Positions 1,602-8,236 of a DNA stretch of 8,520 nt are shown in pieces. The translations under genes and the position numbers were made by a program. Location of the stretch: IMG/VR virus record IMGVR_UViG_2563367003_000003; one strand, written 5' to 3'. This DNA is from a virus. Its lineage: Duplodnaviria; Heunggongvirae; Uroviricota; Caudoviricetes. The first letter of the stretch is position 1. Each line of letters starts with the position of its first letter. The notes below the pieces were generated by a model. It made no database searches. It saw only the letters and a program-made list of their open reading frames with translations, and was not told where the DNA came from.

Positions 1602-1725
1602 CAACCAGTCAAGGATGTGCATTTAGTGCACCTGAAATCAACAATAAGAAACAATAGGCAGAAATGATTATGGCTTTTTTACTCTTAAAAATCAATTACT
1701 CAGCGCAATCGCGCAAAAATAATTT

Positions 1726-1765
1726 GCAATATTGCTTGACTCGCTTTTTTGTCATGGCGTATCGT
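1726..1765 (+). promoter_or_regulatory. Candidate sigma70 promoter for the small-gene/primase operon, with an operator-like palindrome abutting the -35
   Basis: TTGACT (1736-1741), 18-nt spacer, TATCGT (1760-1765). Perfect 10-bp palindrome GCAATATTGC (1726-1735) directly 5' of the -35; further GCAAT half-sites at 1704-1708. The upstream part of track ORF 1664-2191 has no RBS and is better read as leader. Confidence 0.35.
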
Positions 1766-2017
1766 TTGCCCGCACCTCATAAAACAGGTGCCGGGTTTGA
1801 CAGCCTGAACAATCAAGCGGGTAGCCGCTATATTTCCGTAATGCGGTTTTTTTGTGCCCGTAATTCCACCCTACCCCGTATTATGGCGGGGCGTAATGGG
1901 GGAGCCTTTGCGCTCGCTGGTTCCTTGATTGCCAGTCTGTCAACCCTGTTACGTCCCGCCACCATGTTTGACAGCGTGCTGGCGAGACTCCGTAAACTTA
2001 ATCAAGGAGCCGCCAAA

Positions 2018-2191
2018 ATGGCTATATCAACACGCCCTGATTTTATCTGGCGCTTTATGCAGTGCCACGGTAAAAATATCCGCCTTCATACCGTTACCGC
2101 CGCCAGTGAGCGCGAAGCGCGCGCCCTGCTTCCGGCATCCCGTCTGGTCTTTGTTGCCCGTATTCGTGTCCGGGAGGCGTGCCATGTTTAA
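2018..2191 (+). CDS. Icd/Ash-like small protein, 57 aa, first gene of the overlapping small-gene operon
   Basis: Internal ATG at 2018 in frame with track ORF 1664-2191, preceded by a consensus SD AAGGAG (2005-2010, 7-nt spacing). Segment FIWRF...HTVTAASEREARALLPASRLVFVARIRV resembles the Ash/Icd-like family motif as I remember it; needs HMM confirmation. Confidence 0.5.
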   Translation: MAISTRPDFIWRFMQCHGKNIRLHTVTAASEREARALLPASRLVFVARIRVREACHV

Positions 2192-2366
2192 GATCCTTAT
2201 TACCCTGATTAACTACCAGAACGGCGACGTTCGCCAGATGATTCATTCCTGGGAATATCCGACTTATGACGATGCATGGCGTGATGCCTGTCGTATGGCA
2301 TATTCCCGCAATGACAAACAGGGGCGATTAACTCACAAATGCGCAGTAAAAATCATGGAGGGGTAA
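2184..2366 (+). CDS. Hypothetical small protein, 60 aa
   Basis: ATG at 2184 in frame with track ORF 1929-2366, preceded by SD GGGAGG (2172-2177). Overlaps the stop of the upstream gene by 8 nt, suggesting translational coupling. The longer 145-aa reading lacks an RBS. Confidence 0.5.
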   Translation: MFKILITLINYQNGDVRQMIHSWEYPTYDDAWRDACRMAYSRNDKQGRLTHKCAVKIMEG

Positions 2367-2368
2367 CG

Positions 2369-2557
2369 ATGTACGAGATTCATATTAAATTGCGTAATGT
2401 GGTAACAGGAGAGGAAGAAAACTTCCACACGATACGTAAATATAAATCAAAAGGAAAAGCGGCAAGGGACGCTATCAGGTATACGGAAGAAATTGCGCCG
2501 AAATATCAATTGCCAGAAGAAGAGCTCACAGCATCAGTGGTAAAGGTGAAGAAATGA
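2369..2557 (+). CDS. Hypothetical small protein, 62 aa
   Basis: ATG at 2369 (MYEIHIKL...) in frame with track ORF 2339-2557, preceded by SD GGAGGGG with about 6-nt spacing and starting 2 nt after the upstream stop. Lys/Glu-rich. Confidence 0.5.
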   Translation: MYEIHIKLRNVVTGEEENFHTIRKYKSKGKAARDAIRYTEEIAPKYQLPEEELTASVVKVKK

Positions 2558-2772
2558 AAACCCGTTCAGCATCCCGTAAATATAGCCGTAATACTGAAAA
2601 ACGTTTCTTTGTGCTGGGTTATGCCGTTAATAAACGCGGGTTAACCAAACATGCACATGCAACGGTATACGGAGCGGAGCCAGGCGAAGCCATACGCCGC
2701 GCAGCCGAAGGACTGGAAAAGCTGGGAATGACGCATTTCAGAGCGTTGAAGGTGACGCAGCTTTCCGCCTGA
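2554..2772 (+). CDS. Hypothetical small basic protein, 72 aa
   Basis: Start ATG overlaps the upstream stop as ATGA (2554-2557), indicating translational coupling. Basic N-terminus (RSASRKYSRNTEKR). No family recognised. Confidence 0.5.
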   Translation: MKTRSASRKYSRNTEKRFFVLGYAVNKRGLTKHAHATVYGAEPGEAIRRAAEGLEKLGMTHFRALKVTQLSA

Positions 2773-2840
2773 TTCCCGAATTATCCACTGATAACTGAAT
2801 TAAATTTATATTTCGACCTTAACGGGTCGGGGGAGTTTTT

Positions 2841-3146
2841 ATGTCTGAAAATCAGAATTACGCAGATATTTTAGATAAAGAATACATTGGATTTTTTACA
2901 GAGAGTGCAAAAGAAGATCTCGCAGATGTAATTAACCTCATCGATCTTATATCCATCATGTTTGGTGAGAGGGATTGCGGAGCATCTTCAGAAATCACAA
3001 ACAAAGCAATTGTATCTCTGTTTAATATTATTTATCGGGAATTAGAAACAATAAAATCTGGTATGCATCTTTCTGGCGGTATTTTTTCATGGCACAAAGC
3101 TGAAGCCGCAGGGATTACCAAGAAACAAGAAGTAACGAGTAATTAA
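2841..3146 (+). CDS. Hypothetical protein, 101 aa, AT-rich moron-like gene directly upstream of the primase
   Basis: SD GGGGGAG (2829-2835) 5 nt before the ATG. Lower GC than its neighbours. Bracketed by a 5-bp hairpin (CGACC/GGTCG, 2814-2829) and a strong 3' hairpin. No recognisable motif. Confidence 0.55.
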   Translation: MSENQNYADILDKEYIGFFTESAKEDLADVINLIDLISIMFGERDCGASSEITNKAIVSLFNIIYRELETIKSGMHLSGGIFSWHKAEAAGITKKQEVTSN

Positions 3147-3150
3147 TAAA

Positions 3151-3185
3151 ACCCCACTGCAAAAGGTGCAGTGGGGTGGAGTTTT
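3151..3185 (+). terminator. Strong stem-loop (11-bp stem) with a short U-run, between the 101-aa gene and the primase start; possible terminator or attenuator
   Basis: ACCCCACTGCA (3151-3161), loop AAAGG, TGCAGTGGGGT (3167-3177), perfect complement. Followed by GGAG then TTTT (3182-3185), so the U-tract is 4 nt from the stem and not canonical. The hairpin contains the GTG at 3166 that the ORF track uses as the primase start. Confidence 0.4.
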
Positions 3186-3189
3186 ATAT

Positions 3190-5865
3190 ATGAAATCTGA
3201 CATCAGAAAAGAGATTATTAACCGTCTTATCCGTGATTACAACTTCAAAGAAGAAAATAACTACCTCCGGTATGGTGTTTGTCCGCAATGTGGAAAGAAA
3301 GAGTTGTTTACCAGCCTTGAAAGGCCGTACATCGTACACTGCGGGCGTGAAAATAAATGCGGTACAGACCTGCTGACTAAAGAACTTTACCCGGATGTGT
3401 TTTCATCATGGTCAGATCGCTATATCAGTACGAAAGATGAACCATACGCAGCGGCGGCAGCTTATCTCCTGGAGGCACGCAATATTGCTACAGAGCCACT
3501 GAAGGGGGTATTTACCCAGGAGCGATACAAAGACAAGGAAAGCGGCGAACAGGCCGCTACTGTGCGTTTTACGCTGGCTGACGACGTGTGGTGGGAGCGC
3601 ATCATAGACCGACCGGAACGCTTCGAACGGAAGGCGAATTTTTCCGGCAGCTACAAGGGGTTGTGGTGGGCTTATCCGGGAGCAGATTTAAGCAAGGCCA
3701 AAGAAATCTGGATTTGTGAGGGTATCTTTGATGCCATCAGCCTTAACCAGAATGGCATTGCGGCCGTTTCTGTCATGTCTGCCGTGAGCTACCCTGATAA
3801 GGCACTGGAAGAGCTGGCGAAGCTGTGCGGGGATAATCCCCGTCCGGTTATCGTGTGGGCGCTGGATAACGGGCGTGCAGGTGAGCGTTACGCGAAAAAA
3901 CATGCAGAACGCAGCGCCGAAGACGGCTGGAGAACGGCAGCGGCGTTGCCAGGTAAAAACAACAATAAACGCGACTGGAATGATTTACACATCGCCGGAA
4001 AGCTGCGTGGCCATGATGTGAAAAGATACCGTTATTACGGTGATTTATTGCTGGCGAAATCTCCAAGAGATAAGGCACTAATAATGTTTTCCTTTCGTGA
4101 GCGGAAGGAATTTCATTTTACTTTTGATAACCGTGTTTTCTGGTTCAAGCTGGACATTGAGCGCCATATGAAGGCTGTTGAGCGTGTCATTAATGAGCGA
4201 AATGTTGATGAGGATGAAGCGCGCAAAATTGCACTTAAGGAATCTGGTGCAGTAAAAGAAATCGCAAACTGTAACCCAGCGCCGCTTTATTACATTCGAA
4301 ATAATGACACGGATGAAGCATGGTATTACTTCCGTGTTACGTTCCCGGATGGTGCTACGGTGAAAAACACCTTTACATCAGGACAATTAACATCCTCATC
4401 TGAATTTAAAAAACGCCTGTTACACGTGGCAAAAGGCGGTATTTATACCGGAACGACTACGCAGCTTGACGCATTAATAAAAAATGACCTTCCCGCAATA
4501 AAAGAGGTTATTGGTCAGGATTTTATCGGATACAACAAGGCGATTGGGGCATGGCTGTTTAATGATATTGCTGTTTACAAGGGAAAAACTTATGAAATCA
4601 ATGACGAGGATTATTTTGAAATTGATGGCATAAACGCAAAACCATTAAGCGAAAAACCCACATTACAGATTAACTACAAAAAACCGGATGAATTTACAGC
4701 GTCCTGGGTGGAAGATCTCTGGCTGGCTTTTGGTGAAAAGGGAATTATTACCCTGGCTTTCTGGTTGGGCTCCCTGTTCAGCGAACAAATCCGGGATAAA
4801 GAAGAATCCTTCCCTTTCCTTGAAGTCACCGGAGAGCCCGGAACGGGCAAATCAACATTGATTGATTTTTGCTGGCGGCTGTGCGGTCGTGACAACTACG
4901 AAGGAGTTGATCCAACCAAAGGATCAGAGGCGGGCTGGAAGCGCACCTTTGGACAGGTCGCCGGATTGCCTGTTGTTCTGATTGAAGCAGACCGGGGAGA
5001 CAATGCGCAAAAAAGAGGTGCGTTTGACTTCGATAACCTGAAAAGCCTCTATAACGGTGGCGGTATCGGTGTTCGTGGGGTTAAGGCCAACAATAACAAC
5101 ACCTATGACCCGGATTTTAAGGGCGCTATCGTGATTGCGCAGAATGCGCGGGTAAATGCCTCGCCGGCAATTATTGAGCGCCTGATACGCATATACACCG
5201 ATAAAAAACGCCATTCACCTGATACCCGACTGGCGGCGAGACGGCTGGAACTCTACCCCGTCGAGAAGGTATCGGGGTTTATTCACCGGGCGGTAAGTCA
5301 GGAACGGGCGATTATGCAAACGTTCCTGGAAGTATCGCCCGCTGAAACGGAACGCCTTTGCGGATGCGAAAATATTCGCCATCCCCGTATTGCCAAAAAT
5401 CACGCGCAACTTATCGCGCTGGTCAGGGCGCTGAAATGCGTTATCGATATCCCGGATGAATGGCTTGATGCCACATGTCTGGAACTGGAACAAATGGCAA
5501 CGGCGCAGGTTAAAGCGGCGGCGGCTGACTTGCCAGAAGTGATGGAGTTCTGGGAGGCGTTCGACTTCCTGGACGGCATAACAAAATACGGTGTAAACCA
5601 TTACGGCAAGGGATGCCGCGAAGGGATTGCTATCAGTATTCCGCAACTGGCACAGGCTGCCGCCATTCACCGCGTGGAGATCCGAACCGATCGCGAAATG
5701 ATTGAGTTGCTCGGAGCTGGGCGTTCCCGACCGTTGACAGGCCGTAAAACCATTCGTAGTGAGGTGTCCAGACAGGCAAACGCCGGAAAAGGAGTAGCCG
5801 AAGCCAGAGAGCCGGAAGTACTGAAATGCCGGATATTCAGTTACAAGGAGGTCACCGAAAAATGA
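3190..5865 (+). CDS. Bifunctional DNA primase/helicase, P4 alpha-like replication protein (zinc ribbon + TOPRIM-type primase + P-loop NTPase)
   Basis: Track ORF 3166-5865 begins with GTG inside the hairpin; the first ATG at 3190 has SD GGAG (3178-3181). Motifs: zinc ribbon CPQCG...HCGRENKCG (about nt 3279-3363), TOPRIM-like EGIFDAISL (about 3715-3744) with ALDNGRAG (about 3859-3882), Walker A GEPGTGKST (about 4832-4858), Walker B-like VVLIEAD (about 4970-4990). Architecture matches P4-family primase/helicases. Confidence 0.85.
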   Translation: MKSDIRKEIINRLIRDYNFKEENNYLRYGVCPQCGKKELFTSLERPYIVHCGRENKCGTDLLTKELYPDVFSSWSDRYISTKDEPYAAAAAYLLEARNIATEPLKGVFTQERYKDKESGEQAATVRFTLADDVWWERIIDRPERFERKANFSGSYKGLWWAYPGADLSKAKEIWICEGIFDAISLNQNGIAAVSVMSAVSYPDKALEELAKLCGDNPRPVIVWALDNGRAGERYAKKHAERSAEDGWRTAAALPGKNNNKRDWNDLHIAGKLRGHDVKRYRYYGDLLLAKSPRDKALIMFSFRERKEFHFTFDNRVFWFKLDIERHMKAVERVINERNVDEDEARKIALKESGAVKEIANCNPAPLYYIRNNDTDEAWYYFRVTFPDGATVKNTFTSGQLTSSSEFKKRLLHVAKGGIYTGTTTQLDALIKNDLPAIKEVIGQDFIGYNKAIGAWLFNDIAVYKGKTYEINDEDYFEIDGINAKPLSEKPTLQINYKKPDEFTASWVEDLWLAFGEKGIITLAFWLGSLFSEQIRDKEESFPFLEVTGEPGTGKSTLIDFCWRLCGRDNYEGVDPTKGSEAGWKRTFGQVAGLPVVLIEADRGDNAQKRGAFDFDNLKSLYNGGGIGVRGVKANNNNTYDPDFKGAIVIAQNARVNASPAIIERLIRIYTDKKRHSPDTRLAARRLELYPVEKVSGFIHRAVSQERAIMQTFLEVSPAETERLCGCENIRHPRIAKNHAQLIALVRALKCVIDIPDEWLDATCLELEQMATAQVKAAAADLPEVMEFWEAFDFLDGITKYGVNHYGKGCREGIAISIPQLAQAAAIHRVEIRTDREMIELLGAGRSRPLTGRKTIRSEVSRQANAGKGVAEAREPEVLKCRIFSYKEVTEK

Positions 5866-6872
5866 CGATAAAGAAGTTGGTTAACGGTAAGTTTGCTGTG
5901 GACGTGCGGCCTGCAGGAGCAGAAGGAAAAAGATTCAGGCGGCGATTTGATACTCGTGGTGAAGCAGTGGCGTATGAACGCCATGTTCTGATGCACTACC
6001 ACAACAAAGAGTGGGTCGAAAAGCCCATTGAACGTAAAGCGTTAAGCGATCTTCTGGAATTATGGTGGGCGTATCATGGCAAGAATCATCGTTATGGAGC
6101 GATGACGCGGGTAAGAATTGAAGCTGTTCTTTGTGATATGCGCGAACTTGGGATAAACAGAAGCGATCATTTAACCCGGAAAAATATTATCAGATATCGA
6201 CTTAAATTAATGAATCGTGGAATTAAACAGTCAACAGTAAATCGCTATTGTGCCATGATGAGCGGTTTCTTTGAAAAGCTGATTGATGCTGAAGAGTTTG
6301 CGGGTAATAACCCGTTTCGCGAGATACGTAAGTTAAACATTAATCAGCCAGAAATGGCTTATCTTGCACATGATGATATTTCCAGGCTAACCGCGCTTTT
6401 ATCTGGCGATAATCTTAAGGCTGTATTGTTGTGTCTGGCTACAGGTGGGCGCTGGGGTGAGATTGCCAATATTAAAGGTGAGCACATAATTGGCGGAAAG
6501 GTTATTTTTATGAAGACAAAGAACGGCTCAAGGCGGGTCGTTCCAATCGCTAAAGATCTTGAATCACTGGTCAAAGTAAAGGCGACCGGAAGATTAATGA
6601 AACCTAATTATGCAACTGTCAGAAGTGCAATAAGGACTGTGCGGCCTGATTTACCCGTCGGTCAGTCTGTGCATGTTTTACGGCATACCTTTGCCACTCA
6701 CTTTATGATTAATGGTGGAAACATCATCACATTGCAGAAAATACTAGGACACAGCACTATTCAGCAGACGATGACTTACGCGCATTTTGCACCGGATTAC
6801 CTGGCAGATGCCATGAGATTTAACCCGGTAGCCAACATAGTGATCACCGAAGAAAAAGAGCCAGCAGAGTAA
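5862..6872 (+). CDS. int: Tyrosine recombinase, P2-Int-family integrase, 336 aa
   Basis: N-terminus MTIKKLVNGKFAVDVRPAGAEGKRFRRRFDTRGEAVAYE and the catalytic region (GGRWGEIANIK; HVLRHTFATHFMINGGNIITLQKILGH; TMTYAHFAPDYL with the tyrosine nucleophile) closely parallel P2 Int as I recall it. Near-consensus SD AAGGAGGT (5845-5852). The ATG at 5862 overlaps the primase TGA (5863-5865) as ATGA. The track start at 5826 is an upstream in-frame extension. Confidence 0.9.
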   Translation: MTIKKLVNGKFAVDVRPAGAEGKRFRRRFDTRGEAVAYERHVLMHYHNKEWVEKPIERKALSDLLELWWAYHGKNHRYGAMTRVRIEAVLCDMRELGINRSDHLTRKNIIRYRLKLMNRGIKQSTVNRYCAMMSGFFEKLIDAEEFAGNNPFREIRKLNINQPEMAYLAHDDISRLTALLSGDNLKAVLLCLATGGRWGEIANIKGEHIIGGKVIFMKTKNGSRRVVPIAKDLESLVKVKATGRLMKPNYATVRSAIRTVRPDLPVGQSVHVLRHTFATHFMINGGNIITLQKILGHSTIQQTMTYAHFAPDYLADAMRFNPVANIVITEEKEPAE

Positions 6873-7120: not shown

Positions 7121-7440
7121 GGGGGGGGATGCGCAAAGCGGTTACAACGGTTACAAATTTAAAATCACTTATTTTTGCATTATATATCAATACATTATAA
7201 CTGGTCGGATGAGTTACAAAAGCGGTTACAACGCGGTTACATGTAACCGTTTTGTTAGGTTACAGGCGGTTACAGGTTAAGTTTTTAATTGATTGATAAT
7301 AAAGTGCTTTTTGAAACCTGTAACCGTTGTAACCGCAGTGTAACCGCAAAGCGGTTACAAACAATATCCATTAAAATCATGCTGTTAAGTGGTGTTTTTG
7401 ACTGTTGTAACCGTTGTAACCGCTTTGCGCACCCCCCACC
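7121..7440. repeat. Iteron array of GGTTACA/TGTAACC heptamers around an AT-rich core, bounded by 36-bp near-perfect inverted repeats; candidate replication origin and/or att arm-site region
   Basis: Forward GGTTACA at 7140, 7149, 7224, 7235, 7258, 7268, 7353 (plus partial GTTACA at 7213); reverse TGTAACC at 7242, 7319, 7328, 7339, 7406, 7415. Left repeat 7121-7156 (GGGGGGGGATGCGCAAAGCGGTTACAACGGTTACAA) matches the reverse complement of 7405-7440 at 34 of 36 positions, with the inner 26 perfect. Internal palindromes GGTTACATGTAACC (7235-7248) and TGTAACCGCAAAGCGGTTACA (7339-7359). AT-rich segments at 7157-7210 and 7275-7318. Confidence 0.8.
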
Positions 7441-8053: not shown

Positions 8054-8236
8054 ATGTCTTTCCCTTGCCCGGCCTGTGGCGCTTCAGCCCGCACCCGTGG
8101 TCGTTCGTTGGAAGAACACGAACAAAACATCTACAGAACGTATTACCAGTGCAATAATATTGAGTGTGGGGCTTGTTTTTGTACGCTTGAGTCGTTTGTA
8201 CGCATTACTAAGCGCAGGAAGTCGAAAACTTCATAG
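8054..8236 (+). CDS. ogr: Ogr/Delta-family zinc-finger late-gene transcriptional activator, 60 aa
   Basis: C-x2-C ... C-x4-C arrangement (FPCPACGASARTRG...YYQCNNIECGACF...ESFVR) aligns with the P2 Ogr / P4 Delta zinc-finger pattern as I recall it. Good SD and -10. The overlapping track ORF 8049-8381 in another frame is rejected. Confidence 0.8.
   Translation: MSFPCPACGASARTRGRSLEEHEQNIYRTYYQCNNIECGACFCTLESFVRITKRRKSKTS

Follow-up and report, generated by a model that had tools for sequence, protein, structure and literature searches.

Four small genes downstream of a C4/CI-type antisense RNA module in a chromosomal island of Escherichia coli

The four-gene block and its conservation

The 8,520-nucleotide stretch of virus record IMGVR_UViG_2563367003_000003 analysed here (the window) carries a block of four small genes, termed g1 to g4, between positions 2018 and 2772. 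An earlier note on this DNA had reported four co-oriented small open reading frames (ORFs) of 57, 60, 62 and 72 amino acids (aa) at this site, and both their coordinates and their junctions were found exactly as claimed. Its description of a tightly packed gene block in the early or replication operon of a mobile element was also borne out. The genes and their Shine-Dalgarno (SD) sequences are as follows.

2018-2191, plus strand: g1, 57 aa, Icd/Kil-like leader gene; SD AAGGAG at 2004-2009
2184-2366, plus strand: g2, 60 aa, in the position of P4 epsilon; SD GGGAGG at 2172-2177
2369-2557, plus strand: g3, 62 aa, predicted beta-beta-alpha-beta protein; SD GGAGGGG at 2357-2363
2554-2772, plus strand: g4, 72 aa, predicted disordered basic N-terminal tail and beta-beta-alpha-beta core; SD AAGGTG at 2543-2548

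The ATG of g2 lies within the final codons of g1 (ATGTTTAA), which gives an overlap of 8 nucleotides (nt); g3 begins 2 nt past the g2 stop codon, and g3 and g4 share an ATGA overlap. For each of the four genes a purine-rich SD was present 5 to 8 nt 5' of the ATG. An alternative ATG of g3 at 2339 was adopted by no annotation, and PGAP calls identical boundaries of g2, g3 and g4 in E. coli strain C25 and in four diverged islands. The PGAP version of g1 is a coding sequence (CDS) of 173 aa (window 1669-2190), which crosses both RNA genes described below.

The window matched a chromosomal island in E. coli strain C25 with 100% identity. A related region was present in 108 of 5426 complete E. coli genomes, and the complete four-gene block in 66, with identities of 88-100%. 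In five E. coli copies all four genes were intact, and the length of both indels was divisible by three; five E. coli loci also kept the junctions, namely the 8-nt overlap, the 2-nt gap and the ATGA. The ratio of nonsynonymous to synonymous polymorphism (pN/pS) among the five copies was 0.16 for g1, 0.36 for g2, 0.40 for g3 and 0.26 for g4, and 0.62 for the next gene downstream, g5. Between the window and Yersinia enterocolitica the corresponding ratio of substitution rates (dN/dS) was 0.10 for g1, 0.26 for g3, 0.16 for g4 and 0.33 for g5. The synonymous divergence (dS) was about 1.3 for g3, g4 and g5 and just 0.39 for g1 (window 2018-2191 against 4541-4714 of Yersinia locus L018), which suggests either an extra constraint on g1 at the nucleotide level or a later exchange of the immunity module. 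In the Yersinia copy g2 was lost; it had decayed to a stub of seven codons (MFKLLIN and a stop), with g3 starting about 90 nt past it, and g2 is thus dispensable and the chain from g1 to g3 can be broken. Two ORFs on the minus strand over g1 (2027-2185 and 2094-2246) were rejected as genes because they are interrupted in Yersinia. The genes g1 to g4 are genuine, conserved and under purifying selection. Lack of conservation in related elements had been named in the earlier note as evidence that would speak against the block; in the related E. coli islands the ORFs were intact and under purifying selection.

The product of g1 matched NCBIfam family NF033153 (phage_ICD_like) with an E value of 3.8e-15 and was 51% identical to Icd of phage P1, and the Kil region of P4 matched the same family at 1.6e-21. 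Judged from these matches, g1 is a homologue of P1 Icd and P4 Kil. A scan of genome contigs with g1 alone gave no loci. Of the earlier label "Icd/Ash-like" for g1, the first half thus stood, but the second had to be dropped: Pfam Phage_ASH matched only the N-terminal part of P4 Eta and gave no match to the long ORF of the window that contains g1.

The antisense RNA module and the stop-free frame

The probable control point of the operon, overlooked in the earlier note, is a C4/isrK antisense RNA module located just 5' of g1. It consists of the following elements and is spanned by a long ORF in the frame of g1.

1664-2191, plus strand: long stop-free ORF of 175 aa in the g1 frame, spanning promoter candidate, isrK and C4; analogue of P4 eta
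1736-1765, plus strand: candidate sigma-70-like promoter, TTGACT-18-TATCGT, in the position of P4 PLE
1772-1853, plus strand: isrK / P4 seqA-like leader RNA element
1797-1803, plus strand: target a1, TTGACAG, within the isrK-like element
1810-1817, plus strand: target b1, CAATCAAG, within the isrK-like element
1879-1966, plus strand: C4 / P4 CI-type antisense immunity RNA
1922-1930, plus strand: hairpin loop b' of C4, TCCTTGATT, complementary to b1 and b2
1937-1943, plus strand: single-stranded segment a' of C4, CTGTCAA, complementary to a1 and a2
1968-1974, plus strand: target a2, TTGACAG, complementary to a' of C4
2000-2008, plus strand: target b2, AATCAAGGA, overlapping the g1 SD at 2004-2009

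The C4 RNA was matched by Rfam RF01695 over the full model with 74.6 bits (E value 1.4e-13; gathering score 45), and the isrK-like element by Rfam isrK with 52.2 bits (gathering score 50). A match to Rfam c4-a1b1 at 1759-1811 reached 35.6 bits, which is under the gathering score of that model. The isrK-like element ends in a hairpin and a run of U residues at about 1824-1853. The promoter candidate, which was found by a consensus scan only, ends 7 nt 5' of the isrK match.

The complementarity between C4 and its targets was compared in 16 units, 12 of them from E. coli and one each from Escherichia sp., Klebsiella michiganensis, Raoultella ornithinolytica and phage P4. The sequences of b', b1 and b2 varied in lock-step and formed 12 b types, and a', a1 and a2 varied together in four a types. 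Cognate pairs of b' and b2 were complementary over 7-10 nt, whereas non-cognate pairs reached 4-7 nt. The four target sites listed above match a' or b' over 7-9 nt. In the 15 units with a located ATG the end of b2 lay 9-11 nt before the ATG of icd. The covariation of loop and target is strong evidence of a functional interaction between RNA and target, and it fixes 2018 as the regulated start codon of g1. Among islands that share one g2-g4 cassette five different b types occurred, and the b type of the window was also present in the second unit of locus L007, an island with a different cassette. Immunity specificity and cargo therefore reassort independently.

If the GGAG of the g1 SD pairs with CUCC at 1988-1991, as it is able to, b2 comes to lie in a small hairpin (1988-2014), within its loop. 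In the island of locus L005 the stem flanking b2 shows compensatory changes (GGCUUC/GGGAGCC). This hairpin may serve as the target of a kissing-loop contact, or it may keep the ribosome-binding site (RBS) intrinsically closed, like that of Gifsy-1 orf45. A tandem pair of isrK-C4-Icd units, with a separate a/b specificity for either unit, was present in E. coli loci L006 (3497-4407) and L007 (3430-4407), and in these islands the long ORF of the second unit begins in an 8-nt overlap with the first icd stop codon. The tandem units may represent dual immunity or an intermediate of recombination.

In all of the 12 units compared in this respect the g1 frame was open for 99-612 codons upstream, whereas the other two frames contained 6-31 stop codons over the same span. 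The part of the long ORF upstream of g1 was free of amino acid constraint (pN/pS 0.95), which suggests selection for the capacity to translate through the RNA region and not for the protein sequence. In P1 the icd frame is closed 11 codons upstream and there is no Eta-like ORF, so the stop-free frame is a feature of the P4 type. It may act as a general switch by which translation through the module cancels immunity across the whole class of islands. Two observations weigh against such a use of the frame in the window: the long ORF starts at 1664, after a gap of 195 nt from the end of the gene for AlpA at 1469 and thus uncoupled from it, and its start has a weak SD. The 173-aa PGAP product, annotated as "host cell division inhibitor Icd-like protein" (11971-12492 of locus L001), corresponds to this long ORF, and the RNA genes within it are unannotated. 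"Icd-like" CDSs of 154-216 aa recur in other E. coli islands, at times two or three in tandem.

Proposed control of the operon and candidate roles of g2 to g4

It is likely that the operon is gated by the C4/CI-type immunity RNA, with g1 as an Icd/Kil leader gene and with the mini-proteins g2 to g4 made only once immunity is lifted. In this model g1 to g4 would be the promoter-proximal coding part of an immunity-controlled early or replication operon of a helper-dependent chromosomal island. A leader transcript starting near 1772 would carry a1/b1, the C4/CI-type RNA and a2/b2 in this order, and the processed C4 RNA would pair through loop b' and segment a' with b2 and a2. As the pairing at b2 would cover the SD of g1, g1 would stay untranslated. 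The untranslated leader would be prone to premature termination, as in P1 and P4, which would keep g2, g3, g4, g5 and the primase gene silent in the quiescent island. If immunity was bypassed, g1 would be translated and the abutting genes g2 to g4 would be expressed with it. One possible route of bypass would be an excess of a1/b1 decoy RNA, as with IsrK; the other would be that ribosomes arrive from upstream along the stop-free, Eta-like frame (1664-2191), as happens with P4 eta. The mode of regulation can be deduced with good confidence, unlike the function of g2 to g4. The transcription start, the processing by RNase P, the termination, the actual coupling and the activity of g2 to g4 are what we infer.

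The earlier note had called the block translationally coupled. Coupling is partly supported, by analogy, through the conserved junctions, the kept ATG near the icd stop codon and the precedents of P1 and Gifsy-1. An ATG located 8 nt before the end of the icd stop codon was kept in every intact unit examined, despite differing next genes. According to the P1 record, ant apparently needs icd for its expression, and in Gifsy-1 translation of the leader orf45 was shown experimentally to be required for the coupled anti-repressor-like gene anrP (PMC4825925). What speaks against strict coupling is that each of g2 to g4 has a good SD of its own, that local mRNA folds at g2 to g4 were no more stable than shuffled controls, and that g3 and g4 of Yersinia are still under selection though the chain is broken at g2. 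With these SDs and ordinary folds, coupling may be weak or dispensable. Structures masking the starts of g2 to g4 were considered and rejected, as no sequestering fold stood out from the shuffled controls. Coupling thus has precedent in homologous modules, but an obligatory link along the entire chain is not supported, given the separate SDs and the g2 stub in Yersinia.

For g2 to g4 no significant match was obtained in Pfam, NCBIfam, PHROGs or PADLOC, in line with the earlier statement that these genes have no recognisable family. A tblastn search with the three proteins gave no match in 50,697 phage or 72,556 plasmid records, and profiles of g1 to g4 matched no PDB sequence below an E value of 0.06. 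A match of g2 to P2 Cox (E value 0.46) was discarded as noise. A word-indexed search yielded 8 relatives of g2, 13 of g3 and 13 of g4, all from E. coli save one g4 from Yersinia. When 1.84 billion proteins were searched exhaustively with the g4 profile in HMMER, only 14 cluster representatives were obtained, all of them small; they share the motif F-x-V-x-G-Y-A-V-N/T-x-x-G-x-T, and the family motif is GYAVNxRGxT. With the g4 alignment a scan of genome contigs gave five loci. A gene of the g4 family lies directly 3' of icd/kil, with an 8-nt overlap, in Klebsiella and Tatumella and, by PGAP coordinates, in E. coli L007, and a Raoultella locus has a g4-family match with a C4/isrK module upstream. 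In the lineage of the window g2 and g3 sit between g1 and g4.

The AlphaFold2 model of g4 (predicted local distance difference test score, pLDDT, 85.1) had strands at residues 16-25 and 31-40, a helix at 43-56 and a strand at 60-70, with a disordered basic segment at residues 1-12. The model of g3 (pLDDT 87.8) showed the same beta-beta-alpha-beta order. Both proteins are confidently modelled as small beta-beta-alpha-beta proteins, and g2, judged from its similarity to g3, is probably also a small, stably folded protein of this type. When g2 and g3 were compared with hhalign, their N-termini aligned in register (E value 2.5e-4, probability 43%), and the two genes may be diverged duplicates. None of the comparisons of Icd with g4, Icd with g2, g4 with g2 and g4 with g3 was significant, and a common ancestry of g1 to g4 was rejected, only the pair g2/g3 being suggestive.

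The genes and elements that flank the block are listed below.

1149-1469: AlpA, 32% identical to P4 orf88
2811-2840, plus strand: conserved short hairpin (2811-2832), then GGGGAGTTTTT; 3' boundary of the four-gene block
2841-3146, plus strand: g5, fast-evolving protein of 101 aa just 5' of the primase gene, in the position of P4 cnr/orf106
3166-5865, plus strand: zinc-finger/Toprim primase and P-loop helicase (Pfam Toprim_2; phrog_1139, E value 4e-298), distal gene of the operon

The element at 2811-2840 is either terminator-like or a translation initiation region of g5. A longer hairpin of 11 bp (3151-3177), with compensatory substitutions in the island of L005, precedes the primase gene, so that g5 and the primase gene are each preceded by a hairpin, GGAG, a T-rich spacer and ATG; these hairpins could be attenuators or elements of translation control. 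The protein g5 was rejected as a homologue of Cnr since it gave no alignment to P4 orf106. PGAP starts the primase later, at an ATG near 3190, and the protein is only locally similar to P4 alpha. A second tyrosine integrase gene (Int_N and Phage_integrase; 5826-6872) overlaps the end of the primase gene by a few nucleotides; its position is kept in Yersinia, and a separate integrase gene lies at the left end (9087-10286 of L001). The 9-mer GCGGTTACA, counted in both orientations with at most one mismatch, occurred 12 times in 286 nt (7138-7423) and nowhere else in the window, as compared with 2.1 copies expected by chance. This array is probably an iteron origin for the island primase. Between the left-end integrase gene and that of AlpA, an ORF of 350 aa (1-1053) had no match in Pfam, NCBIfam, PHROGs or PADLOC; locus L004 has a hypothetical CDS of 1050 nt, cut at the locus edge, in the same position.

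The island of E. coli C25 comprises 12.7 kb and lies between gcd and hpt. It encodes AlpA, an integrase, an Ogr/Delta gene and the distant alpha-like primase. Just past the right end of the window is a P2-family major capsid gene (Pfam Phage_cap_P2, E value 2e-72; L001 18987-21604 region), which is preceded by an unassigned gene of 236 aa, and a PemK/MazF-MazE toxin-antitoxin pair lies beside hpt. Elsewhere in the lineage there are islands that have the capsid pair between alpA and the C4 module. The capsid gene together with the Ogr/Delta gene suggests a P2-like helper phage. The core set of P4-like satellites (SatelliteFinder) consists of psu, delta, sid, alpha, int, alpA and epsilon. None of sid, psu and epsilon was annotated in the 12.7-kb island, where the check for sid and psu was a Pfam scan of some unannotated proteins.

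By analogy of position, in the slot of P4 epsilon and P1 Ant, g2 to g4 would most probably be protein-binding modulators in the activation of the satellite. When the candidate roles were ranked, such modulators, directed at the helper or the host and including anti-repressors, came first but remained a tentative choice, and accessory factors of replication and inhibitors or modulators of Kil shared a slightly lower place. The roles of "division inhibitor" and "anti-repressor" offered for g2 to g4 in the earlier note are positional guesses.

It is conceivable, if doubtful, that g2 to g4 are helper-derepressing anti-repressors with the function of P4 epsilon, P1 Ant and Gifsy-1 AnrP, inducing the prophage of a P2-like helper by binding its repressor. 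That g2 occupies exactly the epsilon position, and like epsilon overlaps the kil/icd stop codon by 8 nt, fits this role, and in all three studied modules (P1, P4 and Gifsy-1; PMC4825925) the leader-coupled gene is annotated or was shown to be an anti-repressor. The P2-like helper suggested by the capsid and Ogr/Delta genes is in keeping with it, as is the exchange of the cassette between islands, which is expected of a helper-specific factor. Several findings weigh against the role. No similarity of g2 to g4 to epsilon, Ant or any anti-repressor family was found with Pfam, PHROG, NCBIfam or BLAST, and P4 epsilon was absent from the fold matches of g4 in BFVD, a comparison made with the model of g4 and with no model of epsilon. 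The fold matches were generic (PurS, ClpS and uncharacterised small phage proteins in BFVD), so that no function can be read from the folds. Directly after the g4-like gene of Tatumella, and overlapping it by ATGA, comes a gene for an ORF6N-domain (Bro-type) protein, and in Klebsiella an AntA protein is encoded upstream; as relatives of g4 coexist with such proteins in the same islands, the g4 family is probably not itself an anti-repressor. In addition, g2 is dispensable in Yersinia.

Slightly less likely, g2 to g4 could be accessory or regulatory factors of island replication, which would load or limit the primase at the iteron origin much as P4 Cnr acts on alpha. They are not similar to Cnr, however, the position of Cnr is held by g5, and genes of the g4 family occur with other downstream genes, namely a DUF927 replicase gene in E. 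coli L007 and L010 and the ORF6N gene in Tatumella. It is about as unlikely that they inhibit host or helper machinery (as anti-defence proteins or inhibitors of RNA polymerase, a protease adaptor or cell division) or modulate the toxicity of Kil/Icd.

A further reading, that the 57-aa start is wrong and g1 is truly the 173-175-aa PGAP protein, so that the block would comprise one medium and three small genes, is improbable: the frame has no stop from 1664 onwards and stays open in all related units, and P4 makes full-length Eta from the equivalent ORF (PMC10111431), but the 118 upstream codons are unconstrained (pN/pS 0.95) and encode two Rfam-supported RNAs, a strong SD overlaid by the covarying b2 target lies 8 nt before the ATG at 2018, and the Icd domain starts at residue 9 of the short form. 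By analogy with P4 eta/kil, the long and short forms are probably nested alternatives and not exclusive readings.

The operon gated by the immunity RNA, as preferred here, provides a clean natural example of the P1/P4 antisense RNA switch in a satellite without the hallmark genes of P4. The layout of the operon was already known, and current models are not overturned; the value lies in the candidate effectors, the catalogue of immunity types and the correction of annotation. The widespread "Icd-like" CDSs of about 170 aa are two RNA genes and an ORF of 57 aa. At least 12 covarying specificities of loop and target, independent of the cargo, define immunity groups among E. coli islands. The genes g2 to g4 are candidates for helper-recognition or helper-takeover factors of capsid-carrying islands, predicted to be made as the satellite wakes. 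Tentatively, the g4 family and the possibly paralogous g2 and g3 might form an unrecognised class of satellite effectors, tied to the kil/icd stop codon and released when C4/CI immunity lifts; an example could be a new type of factor for derepression of, or interference with, the helper, which would take the place of epsilon in non-P4 satellites of P2-like phages.

Comparison with known systems

The left operon of P4 (PLE/PLL - eta/kil with embedded CI RNA, seqA and seqC - epsilon - orf151 - cnr/orf106 - alpha) is among the closest known systems and agrees with the window in gene order; seqC is the P4 counterpart of b2. Rfam C4 matched the CI RNA of P4 (8420-8507, minus strand), and isrK and a1b1 matched the seqA region. 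The gene for AlpA (orf88) is followed by eta, with the embedded CI RNA and the nested Kil. Eta is a long ORF ending at 8168, the last 65 codons of which (MATTLTPSHPEF...) match phage_ICD_like; Kil is presumably 65 aa long and corresponds to these codons. Epsilon starts 8 nt before the end of the eta/kil stop codon; next come orf151, which likewise overlaps by 8 nt, and then orf106 and alpha. The window shares with P4 the AlpA-type gene, the isrK/seqA element, the C4/CI RNA and the target at the RBS of a nested Icd-like gene, and further the long in-frame stop-free ORF, the 8-nt overlap of stop and start after Kil, the small genes in the epsilon/orf151 slot and the primase gene. In contrast to P4, g2 to g5 have no similarity to epsilon, orf151 or cnr, the long ORF is uncoupled from alpA (195-nt gap), has a weak SD and lacks a Phage_ASH match, and the island has its own P2-family capsid gene in place of any annotated sid or psu. 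In P4 transcripts begun at the internal promoter are terminated through the interaction of CI with seqA; read-through allows Kil to be made, and termination is prevented when Eta is translated from the late promoter (PMC10111431). IsrK has been equated with seqA and C4 with CI (PMC3632133).

In the P1 record the order is a1, b1, c4, a2, b2, icd, ant1, with icd overlapping ant1. The order of targets, RNA and leader gene in the immI region of P1/P7 is the same as in the window, with b2 on the RBS of icd and the next gene overlapping the icd stop codon. The coupled gene of P1, however, encodes the 347-aa Ant and has an ATGA overlap, whereas the window has three mini-proteins and an overlap of 8 nt, and an Eta-like ORF is absent from P1. 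Like the isrK-orf45-anrP region of Gifsy-1, the window has a small leader ORF and an isrK element that carries a terminator. In Gifsy-1 a processed downstream RNA, STnc1160, has been described, and translation of the leader ORF is needed for the downstream gene (PMC4825925). The short IsrK RNA is an activator there and the cargo is anti-repressor-like and turns on AntQ.

Rfam C4 and isrK also match Gram-negative phage-inducible chromosomal islands (PICIs), among which a subfamily integrating at hpt has been named (PMC10111431). The island resembles this subfamily in its site beside hpt, in the order of zones, Integration - Bro - Replication - Late (PMC10111431), and in the C4/isrK immunity RNAs in the zone between alpA and the primase gene. 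It differs in that its "Bro zone" is without a domain of the Bro network and holds only the Icd-like ORF and g2 to g5. As in a C4/CI module, the window has the RNA upstream on the same strand, both target pairs (a1/b1 and a2/b2) and b2 on the RBS of the Icd/Kil gene; as in the nesting of the P4 type, the frame of g1 belongs to a long ORF that covers the immunity RNA and begins 5' of the promoter candidate.

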